Of a DNA stretch of 64,000 nucleotides, positions 37,616 through 55,122 are shown one piece after another. Within the stretch, counting starts at the first letter, position 1. The number at the start of each line of letters is the position of its first letter. The DNA comes from an uncultured Acidobacteriaceae bacterium (GTDB lineage: Bacteria; Acidobacteriota; Terriglobia; Terriglobales; Acidobacteriaceae), in the NCBI GenBank assembly GCA_963723135.1, contig CAVRPN010000007.1, forward strand, positions 1,229,373 through 1,293,372. Direction: 5' to 3'. The notes under the pieces are model-generated. The model saw nothing but the letters and a program-made list of their open reading frames with translations, was not told the origin of the DNA and ran no database searches. The position numbers were made by a program, and so were the translations under genes.

Positions 37616-38419
37616 CTAAGGCAAATACGGCTGCGCGTCCTTACTCTCCACAAACTTCTTCAGCCCCGCCTCCACCGCCGGCCGAGCGAATAATTCACAA
37701 AATAAGTCAATCTCGCGCTGCAGCTCTTCATGCGGAATCGGCTTGATGAACTTTTTTGCGGCAATCGCGGTCGCGCGGTCAAACTTCGCCAACTGTCTTG
37801 CCGCGACCCGGGCCGCGCGCAGAGCTTCGCCCTCTCCGACGACCTGGCTCACCAGCCCGATCTGCTGCGCTTTGCTCGCATTGAAGCTGCGCCCGGTCAA
37901 CAGCAAATCCCGGACTACCGCATTGCCCAAATCCCGTTTCAGGCGCGGTATCCCGCCGAACCCCGGAATCAATCCCAGCCTCAGCTCCGGAAAGCAAAAC
38001 CGCGCCATCTTGTCGGCAATAATCAAATCGCAAGCCAGAGCCAGCTCAAACCCACCCCCGAATGTGACTCCGTGCACGGCCGCAATCGTCGTCAGCGGAG
38101 CAGCATCAATCGCATTGAACACCCGGTGAATCCTCTCCAGAAAATCCCGCACTCCCTTGGCTGCGGCCGGCTTCTCCATCGCCTGCGAGCGTTCGTAAAG
38201 CTGCCGCAAATCCGCGCCCGCGCAAAACCCGGATTTGATTTCGCTGTAGATAATCAGCGCATGCGCTTCGCGCTGCAGCCCTTCCAGGGCCCTCGTGAAC
38301 TTCTCCAGATCCTCCAGCGAAATCGACCCAATTTCGTTGCAGGGCTCCCGATGCAGCGCCAACTCAATCACGCCGCCTTCCACCTGCCACGACATGGTTT
38401 GGTTGTGAGAGAGGCTCAT
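37616..38419 (-). CDS. Enoyl-CoA hydratase/isomerase (crotonase) family protein
   Basis: 267 aa. FCAGADL oxyanion-hole motif and GVTFGGGFELALACD. Its ATG overlaps the upstream stop (ATGA). Confidence 0.9.
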   Translation of the reverse strand: MSLSHNQTMSWQVEGGVIELALHREPCNEIGSISLEDLEKFTRALEGLQREAHALIIYSEIKSGFCAGADLRQLYERSQAMEKPAAAKGVRDFLERIHRVFNAIDAAPLTTIAAVHGVTFGGGFELALACDLIIADKMARFCFPELRLGLIPGFGGIPRLKRDLGNAVVRDLLLTGRSFNASKAQQIGLVSQVVGEGEALRAARVAARQLAKFDRATAIAAKKFIKPIPHEELQREIDLFCELFARPAVEAGLKKFVESKDAQPYLP

Positions 38420-40065
38420 GCCGTCTTCACCGACCGGTACATCTGGTCGATCTCATCCTTCATCCCGGCAGTGATCGTATCCCGCTTCAGCTTGCCGTTG
38501 ACCGTCAACATCCCATTCTCAATGGAAAACGCCTCCAGACGCACAACGAACATTCGCACCTGTTTGTAGTGCGGTAATTGCGGATTCACCGCGTCCAGCG
38601 CGGCCTGCGCCCGTTCCTGCGTCACATCCCCGGTCACGATCGCCGACAAATACCCGCGCCCATTTCCCACCACGACCACTTGCTGGGCCCCCGGCAGATT
38701 CTGCAGGATCGCATCCTCAATGGGCTCCGGGGCAATTTTGTGTCCCGAACCGAGGACAATCAAATTCTTGATCCGGCCCGCGATCCGCCAGTTCCCTGCC
38801 TCATTCACCTCGCCCTGGTCACCGGTGTGAAACCACCCGTCGCGCAGGGCCTCCGCCGTCTGCTGTGGCCGGTTCCAGTAGCCGGCAAATATGTTGGGAC
38901 CGCGCACCACAATCTCGTCACTTTCTCCCAGCTTCATCTCCATGCCGGGAATCGGCGGCCCGACCCGTCCAACCTCAACATGGTTGGGATCGTCCATGGT
39001 GCAGATCGCGGTGGTTTCGGTCAGCCCGTAGACTTGCAACACGCGAATCCCCAGCATCATGAACCAAAGCTGTGTTTCAGGGTTCAGCGAGGCCGAACCG
39101 CATATCAACCCCTTCAGATTATCGCCAATCATCTTTTTGCGAATCGTCGGAAATACCAGCGCCTTCGCCAGCCACAGCCACAGGCCATCGCCAGGCTTCG
39201 ACTGATTCTGCTGCCTGCGCGCCCAGGCACCTTTTGCCCGCGAGTAAACTGCCAGGGCTACCCCTCCGGTCTGCCAAAGTTGTTCATCCACCGCGCGCCG
39301 CATGCGCTCCAGCAACTGCGGCACGTTCAGAAAATAATCCGGGGCCACGGTCCGCATATCGCTCGCGATCCTGGTCAGGTCCATGTTGAGCGTGACCAGG
39401 CTCCGCCGCTTCAGAAACGTCAGCAGCGCAATCCACGATGCCGCAAACGTAAAGGGCAAATAATGGAAGACGCGATCCTGCCCGGCAGAAGCCGCCATCA
39501 ACTGACTCAAACGCTCCGCAGTCCGCTCCAGCATGAAGCCCACATTCGCCGCTGTCAAAACCACGCCCTTGGCCTCGCCCGAGGTCCCCGACGTGTAGAT
39601 GATGGTCACGGGTGAATCGATCCCCACCTGCACCCGGTCGAGCTGCACTCCCTCTACGCCGCGGAAAATCTCGTCAAACAAGAATTGCGGCGGGGCCTCC
39701 GTCCACCGTTGCGCGATCCCATCGCGCAGCGCCGCATCGCCGCAGCAAATGAGCGACGGCATGGAATCCTTCATCATCGCCACCAATTCTGCAGGAGCCT
39801 GCCGCGAGTAGAGCGGTACCACGATCAGCCCTTCGGCCATGATGGCCAAATCCATCGCCACCCAGCGAATGCTGTTGGCCGCCAGCAGCCCGCACCGCTC
39901 GCCCGGTTTCAGGCTCTTGGACGCGAGAAACGTGCGCGCCCGGCCAACCATCTCGAGCAACTCGCCGCCGGTCACACCCGTAACTGCGCCCTTGCGAATC
40001 TCGGCGAGAATCCGCGTGTCCGCAGCCGCTCTCAGTTGCGAGAAAATCTCGCCTACGAATGGCAT
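38416..40065 (-). CDS. AMP-dependent synthetase/ligase (long-chain acyl-CoA synthetase-like)
   Basis: IIYTSGTSGEAKGV, VYGLTET and GWFHTGDQGEVNEAGNWRIAGRIKNLIV. Confidence 0.85.
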   Translation of the reverse strand: MPFVGEIFSQLRAAADTRILAEIRKGAVTGVTGGELLEMVGRARTFLASKSLKPGERCGLLAANSIRWVAMDLAIMAEGLIVVPLYSRQAPAELVAMMKDSMPSLICCGDAALRDGIAQRWTEAPPQFLFDEIFRGVEGVQLDRVQVGIDSPVTIIYTSGTSGEAKGVVLTAANVGFMLERTAERLSQLMAASAGQDRVFHYLPFTFAASWIALLTFLKRRSLVTLNMDLTRIASDMRTVAPDYFLNVPQLLERMRRAVDEQLWQTGGVALAVYSRAKGAWARRQQNQSKPGDGLWLWLAKALVFPTIRKKMIGDNLKGLICGSASLNPETQLWFMMLGIRVLQVYGLTETTAICTMDDPNHVEVGRVGPPIPGMEMKLGESDEIVVRGPNIFAGYWNRPQQTAEALRDGWFHTGDQGEVNEAGNWRIAGRIKNLIVLGSGHKIAPEPIEDAILQNLPGAQQVVVVGNGRGYLSAIVTGDVTQERAQAALDAVNPQLPHYKQVRMFVVRLEAFSIENGMLTVNGKLKRDTITAGMKDEIDQMYRSVKTA

Positions 40066-40213
40066 GTTGGTCTTAGACGTCCGACTTCAAACGCCGGTGC
40101 TCTCTGGGAAACTCATCTCCGCATCCGCCGCTTCGGAGAGACTTCTGAAACTGTCCTCTCCGTGACCAGCCTGGCCTGAGCGAAGCCGAAGGGTGTTGGG
40201 TACCTTGACAGAC

Positions 40214-41619
<1,406 letters not shown>

Positions 41620-41623
<4 letters not shown>

Positions 41624-42753
41624 GCGGCTGATCCTCCCGCTGCCGCCGGCCAGCGCTGGTACTTGTATTCGAACTGATTCTCGCGGCTGAACTTCAGCAA
41701 GGGATAACAATATTCGGAAAACGCCACCGGCCTCTTGCCCAGCTCGGCCGTCACCCGGGTGTTGTCGAACACCGTATTCCACACCAGGTAGGGCATAAAC
41801 ACCTTCATCAGCGATGCGCCATATCCCACCGTCCCTTTGCGGCCGGAAAGAAAATTCACCGACCCGGCAAAGGGCCGCTCCACAAACGGAGCGAACACCG
41901 GAGCCCGCTTGCTCTGTGCCGCCGCCAGCCCCTTGGTGATCTCGCGAAACGTCTGCGATCCCACTCCCGACGAGAGGTGATAGGTGTCATACCGGGGATG
42001 GTCTTTCTGGTGCAAAGTCGAAATTGCATCGGCCACGAAATCCACATTCACGATGTCGATTTTGTCGGTCGACCGGAAGGGCAGCACCGGCAGCCCGGCA
42101 AGAAAAACAAAGGCTTTGACCATGTCGAACTGCGTGGTTTCCGCATAGCGGCTGTCCCCCAGCACAATGCTCGGCCGGAAGACCGTTTTCGGAGTCTCGG
42201 GCAGCAGCACCCGCATCATGTGCTCGCAGAATTTCTTGGTGCGCGCATAGGGATCGTAGTCCGAGCGCTCCCAGTCGATCGCCCGGTCCTCGGTCACAAC
42301 CTCGTTGTGGCGTTTGCCCGCGACCGCCACCGTGCTCACCTGGCTGAAGCGCCGCAGCCCGTGATAGTGCTCGGCATGCCGCGCCAGGGTCAGCACTTCC
42401 AGCGTCCCGCGCAGATTCACATTCAGGCAGCTCTTTTCCGACTTCCGGTTCAGCGACGCGGCGCAGTGGATCACCGAATCGGTGGTGTGCACCAGCCGGT
42501 CGTACTCGTCGCGCCCCAGCCCCAGCCCGGGCTGCGTCAGATCGCCACGGAAGACCCGCACCCGGGTCTGCAGATGCTCATAGAACTGGGGAAAATCCAG
42601 ATGCAGCTGCAGTGCCTGCCACAGCCGCTCTTCGGCCTCACGCGTGTCTCGCGCCCGTACCAGCACATTCAGCGCGGCGCCGTGATCGCGCAAAAGATTG
42701 GCCGCTACGTGTGCCCCAATGTAGCCCGTCGATCCCGTCAGAAAAATCGCCAT
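41620..42753 (-). CDS. SDR-type thioester/fatty-acyl reductase-like protein (NAD_binding_4)
   Basis: ATG 42753 gives [21 protein letters not shown] (Rossmann GxxGxxG). The catalytic YxxxK is in YARTKKFCE. Confidence 0.75.
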
Positions 42754-42867
42754 GCGCCGGTACCGCTCTTCCTGCCTGAAATCAGCATTACGACCTGGGT
42801 GGCACAGCCCTTCCGCGCTGCGAAAAACCCTCGCAATCAATTTCGGTCTTCCGCCCCTGAAGCAAAC

Positions 42868-45303
42868 TCACCACGTCCCCCCGTTCGTCCCCGTCCTCAC
42901 CGTCTCCCCGTTTCCCGCCAGATGCAGACTCCGCGGCGCCCGCGCCTCCAGCGGCCGGCCCTCAATCAGCGGATACGTCCAGCGCCGCAGCGCCGGAATG
43001 TGCACGTTGATCCAGTAGTCCCACCAGTCCAGCCACTGCGTCTTGTAGGCAAAATCTTCCCGCTCCTCTTCCACCAGCGCGTGCGACAGCTTCTCCACGT
43101 TGTCGGCCGCGAAATCGTGCTCATTCAGCAAAATGAAGGGCTCAAACAGCTCGATCAGCTTCTCCACCCGTTCCAGATTCCTCTCCGCCTTCACCAGCGG
43201 CGTCTTCTTCAGGGGCAGCGGCGACATGATCCGCTGAATCGACTTCACAATCGCCTTCTGCGCCGGCGCCGACATCCTCTGATACCGCGTCTTCGATACC
43301 GGAATGGCATCCAAGCGCAGCCGCAGCCACGACTCCAGCCCCTCCTGCGCCCGGTAGTGCCGGCGGTGGGCCAGCGACGTCAACTCAATCGACCGCCCCA
43401 TATCGCACGGATTGGTCACGGAGGTCGCCAGCTGGTACAGCGGTTCATGCCGCCGCTCCACAATCGCCCCCGCAATCAGCGTCATCCCGGCGCACACCGC
43501 ATCCACCGGAATAATATCCAGCCGCTTCCGCTCGTTCGATGGCAACTGCCGGAAATAGGTCCCCAGCAAGTACGACAGCGACGCCGAAGTATTGATGCCC
43601 TCATTCCAGCCCACAAACGGCTTGGCCACCGAGGTCTCTACAATCGCCGGCCGCACTACCGCAATCGGCAGCCCCGTACCGTGCTTCGCGATCAGCGACT
43701 CCGCCAGACTCTTGGTCAGCGTGTAGGTATTCGGCCAGCCCAGCTCTTTGGCCCGCCGGGTTCCAGCTTCCGTGAGATACGTCTTCAGCCAGCGCACCCG
43801 GTTCTTGCGAATCTGATTCTCCAGCGCCGCTCCCTGCAGACCCTTGGCCGCGTGCTCCCGGGCCAGCGCCTGCATCTTCAATCCGGCGCTCACCTCCGCG
43901 CTCTCCGCCTGCGCCTCCGCCTGCCGGATCAGTGCATGCAGCGCCTGCCACTCCCCTTCCGCGTCAAAATCCGGCAAGCCGCGCGGGTTGTAGTTCGCGC
44001 TCAGCTTCTCGACCACCCGGCCGTCACTTTCGCCCGCCACATAGCAGGTCGAAAGATGCAGCAGCCCGGCATGCTCGGTTCCCCGCACAAACTCCAGGAC
44101 GTTCACCGCCGCGTCCGTGTTGGTCGCCAGCGCATCCCGCAGGTCAGGATTAAAATCAGTTAACCCCGAGCTGTTCACCACCAGGTCCAAATCCCGTTGC
44201 AAACGCCGTGCCAAGTCCGCCCCCAGCCCCAGCCCTGCGTGCGTCACATCGCCTTCCACTACTTCCACCTTCGCCCGCAGAAAATCCGCCAGCCCCGCTC
44301 CATACTTTTCAAACAGCGGATCAAACACCGGCGACTCTTCCACCATCTTTTCCAGCCGCCGCTCGGCCGGATTCGACTTCTGCCGCCGGATCAGCAAGTA
44401 AATCCGCCCGATCTTCGGCAAGTCCATCAATAGATTCGCCAGCCACACCTTGCCGATAAATCCGGTTACGCCGATCAGCATGACATGCCGCCCCGCCAGC
44501 GCCCCCCGCACCGAGAATTCCGGCGCCTGTCTCGGCCCGCCGAAGCGCACCACGGGACGCTCCCCCACCGTGGCCGCAGCTCGTTCCGCCGGAACCGCCG
44601 CCGTCCGCAACTGTTCCCCCGAGATATCCAATAGCCGCGCCAACGTCTTCGGCGCCCGTCGCCCATCCGGCTGCGCGTCGCGAATTCTTGCGAACGCACC
44701 CCGCGGCCGAATCACCGGATCCAGCAGCCTTCCCGTCGCCGTGCCATCGCGAAACTCCAGCCGGTTGGCCACCACCCGCCGCGCCCCCAGATGTCGTGCC
44801 AGCGGCTTCATCACATGGTCCAGGCCCTGGCTCACCAGCGCCACGTCTGCGCCGGCGCGGACCAGTTCCTGCACCTTCTCGACGCCTCGCGCCTTCAATC
44901 GCGGCTTCAGTTTGTATTGGAAATATTCCTCTCCCAGCAGATCCAGCCGGTCGCGCGTCACCCCGCGCAGCGCGGTATGCACCACTCGCGTGGCAAACTT
45001 GCGGTTGGTCGAGTACAGGAATGGCCGTAGCACCGCCATGAGGAAGATCAATCCGCGCCGCCGGAAGCGCTCGGTGAAGGTCTGCGCGTTCCAGGTGAAG
45101 AACGCCACCGGTTCGACCACGGTCAGGTCGAGCAGACTGCCCTCCACCCGCCAGTACACGCTGGGGGACGCGCCGCTGGAATTGTGGTTTCCCTGTTCCA
45201 AGATGTGTTCGCCCGGCTGGAACCACCCGGTTACCGGGCGGGCGAATCTCCTATTGTAAACAATGCTTGCAAGTCCATGCGAAGAAAGGAGCAAACCCGG
45301 CAA
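42868..45303 (-). CDS. Fusion protein: degenerate HAD-IB-like domain + fatty acyl-CoA reductase (NAD_binding_4 + FAR C-terminal domain)
   Basis: The central part has MLIGVTGFIGKVWLANLL (Rossmann), YxxxK in NTYTLTKSLAE, and a long FAR-type C-terminal domain. The N-terminal ~230 aa resemble HAD-IB (…VALVSQGLDHVMKPLARHLGARRVVANRLEFRDGTATGRL). The exact start is uncertain. Confidence 0.7.
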   Translation of the reverse strand: MPGLLLSSHGLASIVYNRRFARPVTGWFQPGEHILEQGNHNSSGASPSVYWRVEGSLLDLTVVEPVAFFTWNAQTFTERFRRRGLIFLMAVLRPFLYSTNRKFATRVVHTALRGVTRDRLDLLGEEYFQYKLKPRLKARGVEKVQELVRAGADVALVSQGLDHVMKPLARHLGARRVVANRLEFRDGTATGRLLDPVIRPRGAFARIRDAQPDGRRAPKTLARLLDISGEQLRTAAVPAERAAATVGERPVVRFGGPRQAPEFSVRGALAGRHVMLIGVTGFIGKVWLANLLMDLPKIGRIYLLIRRQKSNPAERRLEKMVEESPVFDPLFEKYGAGLADFLRAKVEVVEGDVTHAGLGLGADLARRLQRDLDLVVNSSGLTDFNPDLRDALATNTDAAVNVLEFVRGTEHAGLLHLSTCYVAGESDGRVVEKLSANYNPRGLPDFDAEGEWQALHALIRQAEAQAESAEVSAGLKMQALAREHAAKGLQGAALENQIRKNRVRWLKTYLTEAGTRRAKELGWPNTYTLTKSLAESLIAKHGTGLPIAVVRPAIVETSVAKPFVGWNEGINTSASLSYLLGTYFRQLPSNERKRLDIIPVDAVCAGMTLIAGAIVERRHEPLYQLATSVTNPCDMGRSIELTSLAHRRHYRAQEGLESWLRLRLDAIPVSKTRYQRMSAPAQKAIVKSIQRIMSPLPLKKTPLVKAERNLERVEKLIELFEPFILLNEHDFAADNVEKLSHALVEEEREDFAYKTQWLDWWDYWINVHIPALRRWTYPLIEGRPLEARAPRSLHLAGNGETVRTGTNGGTW

Positions 45304-48749: not shown

Positions 48750-51689
48750 CTATTGCAGCTTCGTGTACTCGGCTTTGGCTTGCTTGAGGATGGGGGCTTC
48801 GGGATCGGCGTGTTTCCAGATCGCGAAAAAATTTGTGTAGTCAGCGCGGGTGCGGGCACGGGACGCTTCGGCATCCGCACCCTGCGATCGCCCAGTCTCG
48901 AGTGCATGGGCGCGAGCCAATCCCAACCGCGCCAGCGCTCCTGTCCAGCAGTTGCAGACGAGGCCGCTGTGGTCCAGCACCTTCTGAAATTCAGCGGCGG
49001 CGGAGGCTCCCTCGCCCATCGCCAGGTACGCCTGCCCGCGCACATAAGCGGCGTACAGGCAGGAGCCGTTCGCACTGAACGGAATCAACGCCAGTTCCAG
49101 CGGCCTGGTCTTCTGCAGCAAATCCACGGCCGCGGGCGCGTTCTTCTTCTCCAGCGCCAGTTGCGCTGCGATGACGGGAAGCCACAGCGACTGCATCTGC
49201 GTATCGAGCGGAAACCTTGCGGAAAGATTCTTAGCCAGAGCTTCAGCCCGCGGCACGTCGCCGCTCAGGGCGTAGGCCAGAATCGCTTCCACCTGCGCTC
49301 CCGGACTCTCGCTCCCCAGCCGGAGGGCCGCGGCCGCTGCCTGTCTGGCTTCTAGGGCGTTGCCGAAACCGGCTTCGCGCAGGGCGGCGTTGGCTTGCCA
49401 CATGGCGGCGTTTTCCTTGTTGGCCGCTCTCGTGGAGGCCTCCACGGCCTGTGCCGTCAACTCACGGGCTTTATGCAATTGCCCGCCGTAGGCCGCCGTG
49501 TCGGACTCCAGCGCAAGCCCGTGACTGCGGTACTCCGTCTGGCTTTCCAGCCAGGAGAACTCCTGCGCCATGCCCGCCCCATCCCCTGCCAGAAACTCCA
49601 CCGCATACAAATTCATGTGGATGTTCAGTTCGTCCAGTTTTCGCGCTTCCGCCTCCAGCAGAACTTGCCGTGCCTCGCTGCTGCGCTGCACCGCCAGCAG
49701 CGCCGCTGCCACGTTCACATAGCCAATTACGTTGTCAGGCGAGAGGCGCAGGAATTCCCGATTCGCCGCCAGCGCTTTCTCGTGCAATCCCAGTTCCGAC
49801 TCCGCCATCGCCAGGCTGCCGTAAGCCACGTAATCCCGCGGATAACTTTCCACCCACTCCTGGTAGATTTGCGCGGCTTTCTCCAGTTCGCCGGTCACGT
49901 CGAGATAGTAATACCCGGCAATCAGCAGCCTTTCGCGCTCGCTGGCGCGCTCGCGGAACTCAAACGCCTTGCTGTAGTACTCGCGGGCATGGCCGTATTC
50001 CGCGATGTCGGCATAGTTTCCGCCTACCGCCCAGTACGCCAATGCGAACTTCGGGTCCAGGGCAATGGCTCGCAGGCCGTGTGGCAGCGCCGCTGCGGAA
50101 CCTTTCTCCCGCATCGCTTTATATTGCAGGCTATATTCCTTCAGCGCCTCGAGCGACGAGGTCGTCGCTTGTTCCAGCGGCATATCAAACTTCTGCACGG
50201 TGGCCAGCGATTCGCCCAGTTCACTCCGGAGCTTGCCGGCCGCACCGCCCAGGGCATCGAGGACTTTTTCTTTCGATGAGGCGGTGATCTGCTGCTGCGC
50301 CAGAATGTCTCCGCTCTGGCAATTCACGGCCTTGAGGCCGATCACGTAGTCGCTGCCCAGGCTGGCGATAGCCCCGGCGATGTACGCCTTGCTGCCCGAG
50401 CGCTGGCAGATTTCCCGCGCCACTCCCGGCGCCAGCGGCGTGTCGGCGGGACGCGTCATTTGCTTAAGAGTGGCCGCGATCTGGTCATCGGAGAGAATGT
50501 TCAGGAACGGCGACTGCAGCAGGGTCATGCTGAGCCCCTGCTTCAGCGTGTCATCGAACACCGGGTCGCCGGTCGAGTTCGCGAAATCTCCCAGCACGAT
50601 GGTGTCTTTCTCGCTCAGTGTCAGGTTGCGAAGGGACCGATAGTACAGCGCGCCCGCGATTATCAGGGCGGCCATCACAGCAGCAATTGCGATCAGGATT
50701 TTTCTACGCGGAGCCACTGCTCCGGCCCGCGAAGACTCGGTGGCAACAGCTGCCGAACCAGGCCGAAAGATCTGTCCGGTCGAACCAACCCCGGTTCCAG
50801 GATCGGTCGCCGCCGTCGCAGAACGTCCCGACTCCGTATCCCGCTTCAGTCGTTGCAAGTCGGCCCGCATGTCGGCCGCGCTCTGGTAGCGCAGTTCGCG
50901 GTCCTTCTCCATGGCCTTGTTGATGATGCGGCCCAGCTCCGCCGGAACCTGGGGATTCACCTGCACCGGCGCAACCGGCGCCCCGTGCAGGATGCCATCG
51001 AAAATGGCGGCCGACGTGGTCCCCGAGAACGCCGCTCGCCCGGTCGCCATTTCATACAACACCACTCCGAAGCTGAACAGGTCGGTGCGCGCATCCAGCT
51101 GCTTCCCCAGCGCCTGTTCCGGCGACATGTAGGCGACCGTGCCCAGCGCGTTCCCTGCCGCCGTCAGATCGCCGCGATCGTCGCTCTGCGTAGGCGCAGA
51201 CTCTCCCGCGCTGTCGCTCGACACCACTTTCGCCAGCCCGAAATCCAGAATCTTGGCGTGGCCCCGCCGGGTCACGAAGAGGTTTCCCGGCTTGATGTCG
51301 CGATGAATGATTCCCGCCGCGTGCGCGGCATCCAGCGCGTCGGCGATTTCAACCGCTATCCGCAGCAGTTCGCCGAGCTCCAGCGGCAGCCCCGCAATGC
51401 GGTGCCGCAGCGCCACGCCGTCGAGCAACTCCATGACGATGAAGGCCCGTCCGTCGCTCTCGCCAATCTCGTGGATGGTGCAGATATTCGGATGGTTCAG
51501 CGCCGAAGCCGCCCGCGCTTCCCGGCGAAAGCGCTCCAGGGCAACCGGGCTTTGGGCCAGGTGATCGGATAGAAATTTCAGCGCCACGCGGCGCCCAAGC
51601 GTAAGGTCTTCCGCCTCGTAGACCACGCCCATGCCGCCGCCCCCGAGTCGGCCCACGATGCGGTAGTGCGAGATGGTCTCCCCGATCAC
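48750..51689 (-). CDS. Ser/Thr protein kinase with a TM segment and a large TPR-repeat domain
   Basis: GTG start. The Hanks kinase motifs are [28 protein letters not shown] and YMSPEQ. One TM follows ([20 protein letters not shown]), then about 600 aa of TPR-like repeats. Confidence 0.9.
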
Positions 51690-51754: not shown

Positions 51755-51792
51755 GTATAAAAGCAAAGGGCCGCCTTCCGGCGGCCCTTTGC
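51755..51792 (-). terminator. Rho-independent terminator downstream of the radical SAM gene
   Basis: 13-bp stem GCAAAGGGCCGCC (51763-75), loop TTCC, GGCGGCCCTTTGC (51780-92). On the minus strand it is followed by TTTTAT. Confidence 0.7.
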
Positions 51793-51816
51793 TTTCCTGA
51801 AGGCTGCAGCTTAAAA

Positions 51817-54045
51817 CTAATCCCCTGCCACCGGTTCCGGCATCTCCGGCTTCGGAGCGTGCGCCCCGTTCCCATTACCCTTGGCCAGCGCGCCCAGCGG
51901 AATGAACCCGTTCTCCGCCACCACCGGCTTCTCTTTCAGCACCACCTCGCGATACAGAGAAGCCATGCGTGCGTTATAAGCCTCGTCATCTTTCTGCGGT
52001 CCGCGATGCCGCGCCACTGCCACCTCGCCCTCTGCGTCGGGTGCCCCATTTCTCGCATCTTTTGCGGGAAGTGGGGTAGCGACGGAGGCCGAAGCCGCCT
52101 TCGCATCCCGCGCCCGCTTTTTCTCCTCGCGCGCGTTCTTGGCAATGCCCAGCTTGTCGAGATCGTGTTGCAGTTCAGTGGTGACGATGTCATCGCGCAG
52201 CAGCAGAGAATGCGCCGTGTCTTCCATCTTCACCTTTTTGCCGCCGGCAAAGATCTCATGCCGGCCATGCTCCTCATACCACTTAGTGAGCGTCGCCGTC
52301 ATGTGCATCTTCTCGATGATGTTCCGCCAGCCCACGCCCGTGTTGTAGGCGCAGAAGCTGATCTCGCCCTCCTGCGTCGCGTACGGGATAATGCACTGCT
52401 CCGTCCGCCGGAAGTCATAGTTGAACAGGTCCTGGAACCACATGCCCGCGATGAACAGGAAATTCCACCGGTCCTGCCGCCGCTTCATGACGTCGTCAAT
52501 CGTCCGGTCCGGACCCACCTTCCCGTAATTCTTTCCCGTCGCGTTGAAGTTCTTGTCGAACTTCTTGAGCAGGTCCATCAACTTGAAGTGCGTCGGCGCC
52601 TGGAACGGATCGTAATTCTTCATCAGGCACAGCGCCATCCCAAACACGGTCAGAAATTTCCCGCGCGAAGCATCGTTCACCCGGGCAATGTCCTTGGCCA
52701 GCTGATCGCCCTTCAAAAACGCCGTAACCGGGACAGCTTCCTTGGTTTCCTTATCGATCATCACCGCCATGCCAGTTCCACAGTTAGGGTGACAGCCGCA
52801 TGATAGTTGGCCCCAGTCGTTGTTCTTGTCTTCGACGTGCATCAGGTCGGCCCAGTCGCTGAAGGTCGACATGAAGGAAATCGGGAACCAGTCGCGGCTG
52901 GGTTCGCCTAACCCGGTCTGATTTTTTACGTCGTGGGCGAGATGGCTCAGGGTGTAGCGCTGGGCCTGGCGGCGATCGTCGGTGACGGCTTCGTCGCGGC
53001 CGGTGAAGCTGACGGGCTGGAAGCTCAGGAATCCGATTTTCTTGGGATTGTCGAGCGCGAATTTGATGATGCGTCCGACTTGTTCGTTGTTGATTCCGTT
53101 CACGATGGTGACGACCGGAACGATTTCCACGCCCGCGCGGTGCAGGTTATCGATGGCCTTCAACTTCACGTCGAACAGGTTGCCGACCATGCGGTGGGCG
53201 TTGGCGGCGTTGCCGATTCCGTCGAATTGCAGATAGGCGTAGCGCATGCCGGCTTCGGCGGCCTGCTGCGCGAATTCAAAGCTCTTGGCGAACTCGATGC
53301 CGTTGGTGGCGGCCTGCACGGAGTTGTAACCCACCTGACGGGCGTAGCGCACCGCATCCAGAAAATAAGGCGACAACGTCGGCTCGCCGCCGGAGAACTG
53401 CACGCTCATCTGACGCCGCGGCTTGATGGTGATGGCGTTGTCGAGCATGGTCTTGATTTCTTCCCACTGCAGTTCGTGGACGAAGCCCACCTGGTTCGCG
53501 TCCATGAAGCAGGGATCGCACATCATGTTGCAGCGGTTGGTGAGATCGATGGTCAGCACCGAGCCGCGGCCGTACTTCACCGTGGATGAGCCGTGGTGGT
53601 GCAGCTTCTCGTCGTTGTGGGCACGGATGTCGCGGCCGGGGAAAACGTCTTCCAGATGGCGCGAGAATTCGGTGTCGATCGACATCACATCTTCGAAGTG
53701 GCCGTGCTTGGGGCAGTCCTTGACCATCAGGATCTTGCCGTCACGCTCGACGATGGTGGCCTTGATCTCGCCGATCTTTTCGTTCATCAGAACTTCGTGC
53801 GGGAGGTGGCCGTCGAGAATCTGCTGGCGAATTTCCGGGACACACTTGGGGCACAGCGAATCGGTGGAGCGGGGCCAGCCCAGCGGCGGCTTCGACTTCT
53901 CGTAGGACTTGAGCAGCGGCTTCTCGGACCACTTGGGAGTGGGCGAGGGGTTGGGCTTGATCTGGTTCAGGCGATCGAAGACCACCCATGTCGCCTTGGC
54001 GGCGGCGACGGCGACCTTTTCCACGTATTTGATCGGCTTGCGCAT
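51817..54045 (-). CDS. Radical SAM protein of the tetraether-synthase (Tes / GDGT-MAS, MJ0619-like) type
   Basis: 742 aa. N-terminal Cys pairs CPKC...CPKHGH, the radical SAM motif CNMMCDPC in TIDLTNRCNMMCDPCFMD, GGEPTL, further Cys motifs CGCHPNCG and ISFCAYN, and a ~120-aa Lys/Ala/Glu-rich tail. Confidence 0.75.
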   Translation of the reverse strand: MRKPIKYVEKVAVAAAKATWVVFDRLNQIKPNPSPTPKWSEKPLLKSYEKSKPPLGWPRSTDSLCPKCVPEIRQQILDGHLPHEVLMNEKIGEIKATIVERDGKILMVKDCPKHGHFEDVMSIDTEFSRHLEDVFPGRDIRAHNDEKLHHHGSSTVKYGRGSVLTIDLTNRCNMMCDPCFMDANQVGFVHELQWEEIKTMLDNAITIKPRRQMSVQFSGGEPTLSPYFLDAVRYARQVGYNSVQAATNGIEFAKSFEFAQQAAEAGMRYAYLQFDGIGNAANAHRMVGNLFDVKLKAIDNLHRAGVEIVPVVTIVNGINNEQVGRIIKFALDNPKKIGFLSFQPVSFTGRDEAVTDDRRQAQRYTLSHLAHDVKNQTGLGEPSRDWFPISFMSTFSDWADLMHVEDKNNDWGQLSCGCHPNCGTGMAVMIDKETKEAVPVTAFLKGDQLAKDIARVNDASRGKFLTVFGMALCLMKNYDPFQAPTHFKLMDLLKKFDKNFNATGKNYGKVGPDRTIDDVMKRRQDRWNFLFIAGMWFQDLFNYDFRRTEQCIIPYATQEGEISFCAYNTGVGWRNIIEKMHMTATLTKWYEEHGRHEIFAGGKKVKMEDTAHSLLLRDDIVTTELQHDLDKLGIAKNAREEKKRARDAKAASASVATPLPAKDARNGAPDAEGEVAVARHRGPQKDDEAYNARMASLYREVVLKEKPVVAENGFIPLGALAKGNGNGAHAPKPEMPEPVAGD

Positions 54046-54066
54046 GTGGCTCTTGGCTCCTAACTA

Positions 54067-54091
54067 CAGTTCTCAGTTCTCAGTTCTCAGT
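54067..54091. repeat. Second (CAGTTCT)n microsatellite, 3.5 units plus degenerate remnants up to about 54110
   Basis: CAGTTCTCAGTTCTCAGTTCTCAGT read directly. It starts 22 nt upstream of the radical SAM start codon (54045, minus). Confidence 0.9.
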
Positions 54092-54417
54092 TGCCAATTC
54101 TCAGCACAGGTCAAAACCAAAGCTCCGAGCTGCGACCCTGCTACTGGGAAAACACTTCTGCCCGGGCATTCCGGCCTGCTTTGGCACCTGAGTTCTTACA
54201 CTTTTCCCTGGGTCGTTGGCTGAAACTATCCTATGGGAAGCGGCGGGACAAGGGCATCCGTATGTCAGTGGATGGGGGAAAATAGGGGTTTAGCGGTGGT
54301 TTGGGGGATTGGGTGGGGTTAAGCCATTGATAAGAGAGGGGTTCGGTCCTACAGGGTCTCGTGGTGGAATCGTTCTATTCCATTGATAGAATATTCCATA
54401 TATGGCATAATGTGTGG

Positions 54418-54777
54418 GTGAGTTGGGAGATCGAATTCACGAACGAATTCGAGCAGTGGTGGAACTCTCTCGATGCAGCTGAACAAGAAGACATCGCGGC
54501 CAGCGTCATGCTGCTGCGAGAACGCGGGCCGAGCCTGGGCCGTCCGAACGCTGACGTGGTCATCGGCTCACGGTATCCGAACCTGAAGGAGTTGCGAACG
54601 CAGCATGCCGGAAGGCCTTACCGCACGCTCTTTGCATTCGATCCGCGAAGGGTTGCGATTCTGCTGATTGGAGGCGACAAGACTGGGAACGATCGATGGT
54701 ATGAAGAATTTGTGCCGCTCGCCGACAAGATTTACGAGCAGCATTTGCGGGAGATTGGGAAGGAGAATCGGAAATAG
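54418..54777 (+). CDS. Type II toxin, RelE/ParE superfamily (HigB/Gp49-like)
   Basis: A GTG at 54418 gives MSWEIEFTNEFEQWWNSLDAAEQEDI...LKELRTQHAGRPYRTLFAFDPRRVAILLIGGDKTG. The toxin-first order followed by an XRE antitoxin is HigBA-like. The start could also be 54412 or 54361. Confidence 0.75.
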   Translation: MSWEIEFTNEFEQWWNSLDAAEQEDIAASVMLLRERGPSLGRPNADVVIGSRYPNLKELRTQHAGRPYRTLFAFDPRRVAILLIGGDKTGNDRWYEEFVPLADKIYEQHLREIGKENRK

Positions 54778-54792
54778 GACCGGGGGGATACG

Positions 54793-55122
54793 ATGGCAAA
54801 GAACTTTCGTGAACTGGAAGCAAAGATGTCGCCGGGGTCACGGGCTCGGGCAGAGGCAAAAGTAAAAAGGATGCTGGCCGAGATGCCGTTGGATGAACTG
54901 CGTGAAGCGCGGGAGATGACTCAGGTGCATCTGGCGAAAATCCTTGGCGTGAATCAGGCGGCGGTGTCGAAGCTGGAGCGGCGCACGGATATGTACGTGA
55001 GCACTCTTCAGGACTTTGTGAAAGCCATGGGCGGAGAGTTGAAAATCACGGCGCGGTTCCCTGAGGGGACGGTGGAGATTAATCAGTTTGAGGCGGTCGG
55101 GAAGACGAGCACGGGGGAGTGA
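54793..55122 (+). CDS. XRE-family HTH antitoxin (HigA-like)
   Basis: 109 aa. The HTH lies in LREAREMTQVHLAKILGVNQAAVSKLERR. Confidence 0.85.
   Translation: MAKNFRELEAKMSPGSRARAEAKVKRMLAEMPLDELREAREMTQVHLAKILGVNQAAVSKLERRTDMYVSTLQDFVKAMGGELKITARFPEGTVEINQFEAVGKTSTGE

Follow-up and report, generated by a model that had tools for sequence, protein, structure and literature searches.

What kind of enzyme does a solitary radical S-adenosylmethionine (SAM) gene of an uncultured Acidobacteriaceae bacterium encode, and could it be the one that builds the C30 backbone of acidobacterial membrane-spanning lipids? The branched forms of glycerol dialkyl glycerol tetraethers (brGDGTs) belong to the most widely used terrestrial proxies for past temperature and for pH, and the acidobacterial enzyme responsible for their C30 backbone is still sought. 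An acidobacterial homologue of the tetraether lipid synthase Tes is a known candidate for this brGDGT/iso-diabolic-acid synthase, published since 2022. The gene analysed here lies at 51817..54045 on the minus strand of a 64,000-nucleotide stretch (hereafter the window) of contig CAVRPN010000007.1 and encodes a Tes-like protein of 742 amino acids (aa). As judged from sequence, this protein is not a canonical Tes but a member of a distinct acidobacterial subfamily lacking the N-terminal iron-sulfur cluster.

The open reading frame is complete (742 codons plus stop), and its ATG start is supported by the MRK/MHK N-terminus that the orthologues share. The original prediction, made from the sequence of the window, had read a series of metal-binding motifs from the translation, and this layout was recovered: C65-P-K-C68, C111-P-K-H114, C172-NMM-C176-DP-C179, G219-G-E-P-T-L, C416-G-C418-HPN-C422-G and ISF-C565-AYN. 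Pfam matches were obtained for Radical_SAM (PF04055; residues 168-330, E = 2.8e-17) and Zn_ribbon_HMPTM (PF23545; residues 58-122, 48.8 bits against a cutoff of 27). The best NCBIfam model was Tes (NF045702), matched with E = 8e-94 over profile positions 2-483 of 486. TrsS (NF045646) came second with a partial match of 207.7 bits, which does not reach its cutoff of 490. The best solved structure was the Methanocaldococcus jannaschii enzyme GDGT-MAS (MJ0619; 7TOL), matched with E = 1.8e-62 over residues 93-590 at 32% identity. An AlphaFold2 (AF2) model built on a diversified alignment had a predicted local distance difference test (pLDDT) score of 77 and a predicted template modelling (pTM) score of 0.80; a model from a shallow alignment, in which all members were at least 76% identical, reached a pLDDT of 47.7 and was discarded. 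Foldseek searches with the retained model returned 7TOM and 7TOL on top (E = 5e-31 and 2e-30, target-normalised TM 0.81-0.82, approximately 555 aligned columns), the next match being MoaA (E = 4e-06). SPASM maturases and methyltransferases, which had been named as the competing families, did not provide the best homology: the protein contains no SPASM Pfam domain, and SPASM-family NCBIfam models scored at most 72 bits, on the radical SAM core only. Sequence search and predicted fold agree in placing the protein in the Tes/GDGT-MAS lineage, as had been proposed. The maximum Kyte-Doolittle value over a 19-residue window is 1.1, indicating no transmembrane segment, and the protein is thus predicted to be a peripheral radical SAM enzyme.

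Canonical status, implied by that proposal, did not hold: the NF045702 score of 314.9 bits is below the curated equivalog cutoff of 450. To locate the difference, the 7TOL sequence was rebuilt from the printed alignment, its numbering matching the residues of Lloyd et al., and aligned with the query, clade members and the full-length representatives of an exhaustive search. The resulting domain layout is as follows; dN/dS denotes the ratio of nonsynonymous to synonymous substitution rates and muH the hydrophobic moment.

53875..54045, minus strand: N-terminal extension, residues 1-57 (AF2 pLDDT 88-97, invariant residues, muH 0.44)
53680..53874, minus strand: rubredoxin-like zinc-ribbon domain, residues 58-122 (PF23545, ligand columns, ligand list of Lloyd 2022)
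53560..53679, minus strand: segment in place of the [4Fe-4S]N domain, residues 123-162, without cysteine (alignments, dN/dS 0.11)
52966..53559, minus strand: radical SAM core, residues 163-360 (PF04055, C172-x3-C176-x2-C179, SAM-binding motif G219-G-E)
52246..52965, minus strand: C-terminal auxiliary-cluster and lipid-pocket domain, residues 361-600 (7TOL match, alignments)
51820..52245, minus strand: C-terminal tail, residues 601-742 (modular, clade-specific)

GDGT-MAS carries four metal sites: a rubredoxin-like site (C9-x2-C12-x20-C33-x2-H36), an N-terminal cluster [4Fe-4S]N ligated by C73, C77, C80 and a histidine, the radical SAM cluster, and the catalytic cluster [4Fe-4S]C with its labile Met439 (Lloyd 2022, PMC9433317). 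Three of these sites have counterparts in the query. Its rubredoxin-like site is kept as C65, C68, C111 and H114, the latter two in the columns of C33 and H36, although the zinc ribbon has an insert of about 20 aa relative to MJ0619 (C-x2-C-x42-C-x2-H here, x20 there). The radical SAM site is likewise kept (C172/C176/C179 with G219-G220-E221). The [4Fe-4S]C ligand equivalents C422, C551, C565 and M535 align with C338, C455, C470 and M439 of MJ0619 and do not vary in alignments A1 and A2; the same domain has two further invariant cysteines, C416 and C418. At the [4Fe-4S]N site, by contrast, all four ligands are gone, C73/C77/C80/H83 aligning to K147/H151/S154/K157. The same pattern holds across the clade. 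No cysteine occurs within 28 aa N-terminal to the radical SAM motif in 356 of its 357 full-length proteins, whereas each other metal-site motif is kept in 352-356 of them. Moreover, representatives with the full CCCH set score 504-593 bits on the Tes model and those without it 171-414 bits. The subfamily therefore keeps three of the four GDGT-MAS metal sites and has lost the surface N-terminal [4Fe-4S] cluster. The predicted set of several Fe-S clusters plus a rubredoxin-like iron stands for the rubredoxin-like, radical SAM and C-terminal cluster motifs, and fails for the N-terminal one.

The segment that replaces the cluster domain (residues 123-162, 53560-53679) is itself constrained (dN/dS 0.11) and contains a near-invariant H143-x-D145-x3-H149-x-H151 motif, which might be a replacement metal site.

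The termini of the protein also set the subfamily apart. Its tail had been described as a Lys/Arg/Ala/Glu-rich, low-complexity segment specific to this copy; it proved to be neither copy-specific nor a plain Lys/Arg-rich low-complexity stretch. Residues 601-742 comprise 142 residues with 23 K/R and 23 D/E, giving a net charge of zero, and 17% alanine (24/142); their complexity is only mildly reduced, with a sequence entropy little lower than the core's. In length the 120 best homologues all fall within 705-763 aa, and they share the tail blocks, which are arranged as follows.

52096..52158, minus strand: tail block 1, residues 630-650, D-LGIAKNAREEK-RARDAK (dN/dS 0.067, pLDDT ~80)
51994..52095, minus strand: hypervariable linker, residues 651-684 (column conservation 0.14, pLDDT <50, predicted disorder)
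51922..51993, minus strand: tail block 2, residues 685-708, AYNARMASLYREVVLKEKP, with helix 688-702 (alignment, dN/dS 0.14)
51820..51840, minus strand: carboxy-terminus PEPVAGD (V739 and D742 invariant in Terriglobales)

A G713-F714 pair lies between block 2 and the EPVAGD end. Block 1 is conserved across Terriglobales, Bryobacteraceae and Vicinamibacterales, block 2 occurs in most members of the latter two, and Bryobacteraceae members end in ..VGSFGD, that is in a -x-G-D terminus. None of the tail blocks was found in the canonical Tes proteins compared. The tail as a whole has a dN/dS of 0.18 (block 1, 0.067; block 2, 0.14), compared with 0.05-0.09 in the catalytic domains. It is thus a conserved part of the protein, subject to purifying selection, and not a low-complexity add-on. 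The linker is missing from most homologues, variable in length and unusually long in the query; it is the sole truly copy-specific part of the tail. In the AF2 model, residues 601-660 have a pLDDT of about 63-90 (10-residue block means) and include a charged helix (638-656) containing part of block 1, while residues 661-685 and 707-742 are predicted to be disordered.

At the other end, the clade-conserved extension of residues 1-57, which has no counterpart in MJ0619, is made up of an amphipathic helix (residues 3-27, muH 0.44) and, after it, a conserved Pro/Lys-rich strap, PKWS-KPLLKSY-K-KPPLGWPR. Searched separately against Pfam and PDB at E ≤ 10, neither the tail nor the N-terminal extension gave a match. 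Both most likely serve in partner or membrane docking or in regulation; that they compensate for the lost electron-relay cluster is speculation on our part.

How widespread is the subfamily? Scanning a collection in which each species is represented by a single genome yielded at least 595 confirmed matches. The best 80 of these all belong to Terriglobales (73-91% identity) and include Sulfotelmatobacter, Acidobacteriaceae, Angelobacter and Terracidiphilus, the last as metagenome-assembled genomes (MAGs), as well as the isolate Acidipila rosea DSM 103428. The window, too, probably derives from a Terriglobales genome of Sulfotelmatobacter-like type. Seeds from distant members added Edaphobacter, Korobacteraceae, Bryobacteraceae and Vicinamibacterales MAGs. 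Carriers thus span Terriglobales (subdivision (SD) 1), Bryobacteraceae (SD3) and Vicinamibacterales (SD6), and some 90%-identity clusters of clade members hold more than 2,000 metagenomic sequences. A rough neighbour-joining tree resolved three tiers: canonical Tes; the query clade, with the N-terminal cluster lost and the C-terminal one intact; and a further-degenerate group, which includes a Terriglobus roseus protein that also lacks the C-terminal cluster cysteines.

This T. roseus DSM 18391 protein (WP_014786616.1; L083/L084, 6001-7875) is 624 aa long, 41% identical, and has lost both auxiliary-cluster ligand sets. Its gene is flanked by those for a TrwC relaxase, a TraG/TrwB coupling protein and two tyrosine integrases. 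It thus travels as cargo on a conjugative element and represents an accessory paralogue, not the orthologue. We had considered it as counter-evidence, namely as a degenerate catalytic cluster in an iso-diabolic-acid producer, and rejected it on account of its location on that element.

What, then, does the enzyme do? By analogy with GDGT-MAS, we propose that it couples iso-C15 lipid chains tail to tail, giving iso-diabolic-acid membrane-spanning lipids, and put the probability of this reading at roughly 0.55. A 5'-deoxyadenosyl radical would take a hydrogen from the omega methyl group at the end of an iso-C15 chain in a membrane glycerolipid, and the resulting carbon radical would be held on a sulfide of the C-terminal cluster, as in the mechanism described for that cluster (Lloyd 2022, PMC9433317, and a 2026 review). 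A second SAM would then activate a second chain, whose attack would make the C-C bond and yield C30 iso-diabolic-acid membrane-spanning lipids, the skeleton of brGDGTs. Iso-fatty acids resemble phytanyl chains in their terminal isopropyl group. Coupling is favoured because the catalytic cluster is strictly conserved, because the dN/dS of 0.05-0.09 in the catalytic core amounts to housekeeping-level constraint, because the distribution fits the producing subdivisions, and because mss, the gene for the other lipid-coupling enzyme, is absent from the phylum. Iso-diabolic acid has been reported from SD1, 3, 4 and 6, and it makes up 27-49% of the fatty acids in the Occallatibacter/Terracidiphilus/Telmatobacter group; Terracidiphilus MAGs are among the members of the clade. 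Zeng et al. (2022) proposed bacterial Tes homologues as brGDGT makers. E. aggregans makes iso-diabolic acid and brGDGT-Ia and has a single Tes homologue (32% identity, 4e-61), a level of similarity equal to that of the query protein. Mss has been demonstrated in anaerobes, and no mss homologue was found in Acidobacteria (Sahonero-Canavesi et al.).

Several observations weigh against this reading. Besides the sub-cutoff Tes score and the missing [4Fe-4S]N ligands, Sahonero-Canavesi et al. detected Tes homologues in 3 of 14 iso-diabolic-acid producers (E ≤ 1e-50, identity ≥ 30%) and suggested an alternative pathway; since that identity cutoff is close to the query's 32%, the figure may be an effect of the search threshold. 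Canonical-type homologues, which could be the real synthases, occur in some acidobacteria (Solibacter, 40%; Koribacter, 42%). The 80 orthologous loci compared show no consistent linkage between the Tes-like gene and any gene of lipid biosynthesis, and one cultured carrier, A. rosea DSM 103428, is confirmed. Finally, the literature up to 2026 gives bacterial Tes homologues as functionally untested, in agreement with the original prediction, which had called the acidobacterial ones iso-diabolic acid/brGDGT candidates of undemonstrated activity.

A score below the Tes cutoff, combined with loss of a cluster kept in every above-cutoff representative, makes an altered function of the subfamily possible. 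The protein could accordingly be a neofunctionalised paralogue that uses the Tes scaffold for another radical reaction on a lipid or hydrophobic substrate, such as cross-linking, ring formation or C-S chemistry, with canonical-type homologues or another enzyme making the membrane-spanning lipids. The gap between 315 and 450 bits, the lost [4Fe-4S]N, the new conserved H-x-D-x3-H-x-H motif and the new terminal extensions would all fit, and the family does diversify, as seen from its sister model TrsS and from the T. roseus paralogue lacking both auxiliary clusters. However, the coupling cluster and its labile methionine are strictly conserved, the global fold is that of GDGT-MAS over ~555 aligned columns, and the clade is distributed as the subdivisions reported to make iso-diabolic acid would lead one to expect. 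We regard both the changed chemistry and the reassignment of lipid synthesis to other enzymes as unlikely, if the most serious of the rivals.

Somewhat less probable still is that the chemistry is the same and the substrate narrower: a strict brGDGT synthase acting only on ether-linked iso-C15 diethers, by Halamka's diether-condensation route, with the abundant ester-bound iso-diabolic acid coming from another enzyme. Such a pathway with Tes homologues has been proposed for S. usitatus, and the archaeal Tes works on ether lipids (PMC9433317). Yet GDGT-MAS also binds ester phospholipids, and Terriglobales make mainly ester-bound iso-diabolic acid with brGDGT in traces, so that a gene under such constraint and of such wide occurrence is more readily reconciled with a major component of the membrane than with one present in traces.

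That the protein is a canonical Tes orthologue making GDGT-type tetraethers with four metallocofactors is very improbable: overall homology is clear and some JGI records call clade members 'tetraether lipid synthase', but the cutoff is not reached, 356 of 357 members lack all four [4Fe-4S]N ligands, and bacteria are not known to make isoprenoid GDGTs. The legacy name 7,8-dihydro-6-hydroxymethylpterin dimethyltransferase (methanopterin biosynthesis), which survives as JGI 'HMPT dimethyltransferase' on many members and in the Pfam name Zn_ribbon_HMPTM, can practically be set aside, together with a TrsS-type selenium-system role suggested by the 207-bit partial match, since the pterin methyltransferase assignment of MJ0619 proved irreproducible and the protein was re-identified as GDGT-MAS (PMC9433317), and since the TrsS score is far under its 490-bit cutoff and the Tes model is matched better.

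Returning to tail-to-tail coupling, a more far-reaching version can be formulated, to which we give rather less than an even chance. The tail-bearing subfamily, and not canonical Tes or Mss, would be the iso-diabolic-acid synthase of aerobic soil Acidobacteria, and the 3/14 figure a threshold artefact; the tail (LGIAKNAREEK-RARDAK ... LYREVVLKEK ... EPVAGD-COOH) and the H-x-D-x3-H-x-H motif would replace the electron-relay cluster by redox-partner docking or by oxygen/temperature regulation. If true, most terrestrial brGDGT skeletons would have this subfamily as their entry enzyme.

The surroundings of the gene were analysed for expression signals and functional partners. The following elements flank the coding sequence.

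54067..54104, minus strand: (CTGAGAA)n heptamer array in the 5' leader (period 7, 5.4 copies, 80% match)
54057..54061, minus strand: Shine-Dalgarno sequence AGGAG, 11 nt 5' of the ATG
51759..51796, minus strand: intrinsic-terminator-like hairpin (17-bp GC-rich stem, GGAA loop, then UUUUAU)

The hairpin starts 21 nt past the stop codon and has a dG of -34.8 kcal/mol (z = -4.8), although a simple consensus terminator scanner did not flag it. A strong terminator had been predicted at 51763-51792; this turned out to be the core of the full stem at 51759-51796. A sigma-70 promoter scan upstream of the gene found no minus-strand promoter. An Rfam scan of gene and leader gave no credible match and thus no riboswitch or leader RNA of a known type. 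The gene is solitary: its next same-strand neighbour lies across a 128-nt gap that holds the terminator, and 315 nt lie between it and a divergent toxin-antitoxin pair upstream, which makes the predicted monocistronic arrangement plausible. A search for an operon partner across the 80 orthologous loci found none conserved, the commonest neighbour family occurring in 11 of them.

The downstream neighbour (48750-51689, minus strand) encodes a 979-aa Ser/Thr protein kinase with C-terminal TPR repeats. It adjoins the Tes-like gene in none of the 80 related loci and is therefore probably a lineage-specific insertion. Upstream, at 54361-55122 on the plus strand, the divergent pair comprises a Gp49/HigB-like toxin (138 aa) and an HTH_37/Xre antitoxin (109 aa); among the related loci the pair is common only to L001, and the antitoxin is also present in L053. 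Further downstream (38416-45303, minus strand) lie genes for an AMP-binding acyl ligase (549 aa), a pyruvyl-transferase-like protein (522 aa), a thioester/fatty-acyl reductase (406 aa) and a HAD-fused fatty-acyl reductase (811 aa) ending in a 'Sterile' C-terminal domain. This cluster resembles a fatty-acid activation/reduction set that could supply the synthesis of fatty alcohols or ether lipids. It is found 3' of the Tes-like gene in 9 of the 80 loci, all from one closely related sub-lineage, and owing to this confinement was rejected as functional evidence for the Tes-like gene. In one Acidobacteriaceae MAG lineage (L081/L082, 222-716), an A-type Fe-S carrier gene (PF01521, HesB/IscA-like) lies two genes 5' of the Tes-like gene on the same strand.

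The heptamer array just 5' of the Shine-Dalgarno sequence had been put forward as a microsatellite specific to this gene copy. Its presence in the leader was confirmed; its specificity was not, as a second (CTGAGAA)n array (9.6 copies, 96% match) occupies 425-491 of the window, also on the minus strand, ~25 nt 5' of a BadF/GlcNAc-kinase-like gene that starts ..LYYLGIDGGGSKT and runs off the window. Both arrays lie in 5' leaders in the same orientation, and the one at 54067-54104 represents a single instance of a dispersed repeat. Of the related loci, only L023 was found to have an exact array of three CTGAGAA copies, right after the stop codon of the Tes-like gene. Ten of these loci (L001, L002, L005-L009, L012, L016 and L079) carry another purine-rich leader with a 7-nt period (~RGCYARR, 3-6 copies) in the 75 nt 5' of the start, for example AGCCAAA GGCCAAA AGCCAAT GGCCAAA AGCTAAA, extending into the Shine-Dalgarno sequence. 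This leader of the closest orthologues is like the query heptamer in period and position but not in sequence; it could have a part in translation or as a standby site, or simply reflect drift of simple sequence.

In the literature searched, three points seem undescribed: that the type so widespread in Terriglobales forms a subfamily of its own, devoid of the N-terminal cluster, that it falls below the curated and near the published thresholds, and that it has conserved terminal extensions. The problem of the C30 backbone is not solved hereby, but the target is narrowed, as the homologue widespread in iso-diabolic-acid-rich Terriglobales is recognised as a distinct subfamily with three metal sites. 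Since the subfamily falls under the Tes cutoff and close to the BLAST identity cutoffs of surveys, gene surveys for 'brGDGT potential' may overlook its members or include them inconsistently. The subfamily also offers experimental work a concrete protein with defined domains, and its natural loss of the N-terminal cluster is a test of whether that cluster is dispensable for Tes-type C-C coupling.

Among known systems, the protein is closest to MJ0619 GDGT-MAS (7TOL/7TOM) and the functional archaeal Tes proteins MA_1486 and Maeo_0574, with a fold TM of 0.81 and 32% identity over ~500 residues. It shares with GDGT-MAS the Cys3His rubredoxin-like site, CX3CX2C plus GGE, the C-terminal [4Fe-4S] site of three cysteines and a labile methionine, and the lack of transmembrane segments. 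Unlike GDGT-MAS, it has no N-terminal [4Fe-4S] motif, but a ~20-aa zinc-ribbon insert, a 57-aa N-terminal extension and a 142-aa modular tail, and the lipids of its host are based on iso-branched fatty acids whereas those of archaeal GDGT-MAS hosts are isoprenoid ethers. The canonical-type bacterial homologues of S. usitatus Ellin6076 and K. versatilis (40% and 42% identical to MA_1486; representatives P0186, P0190, P0192, P0193 and P0205) are likewise Tes-family proteins proposed as brGDGT makers. They are 34-38% identical to the query and differ from it in having four metal sites, Tes scores of 504-593 bits, a length of ~500-630 aa and no acidobacterial tail blocks. TrsS (NF045646), a sister model within the same radical SAM lineage, aligns with the query over its N-terminal two-thirds; the query, on the other hand, has no selenocysteine and no trs gene context, and scores 207.7 against 490 bits. 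Mss of Thermotoga and Thermoanaerobacter, also a radical SAM enzyme, has been demonstrated to join two fatty-acyl tails into diabolic or iso-diabolic acids, and an auxiliary-cluster mechanism like that of Tes has been postulated for it. As published descriptions set it apart, it belongs to a different radical SAM lineage, so far confined to anaerobes, and T. maritima is without a Tes homologue.

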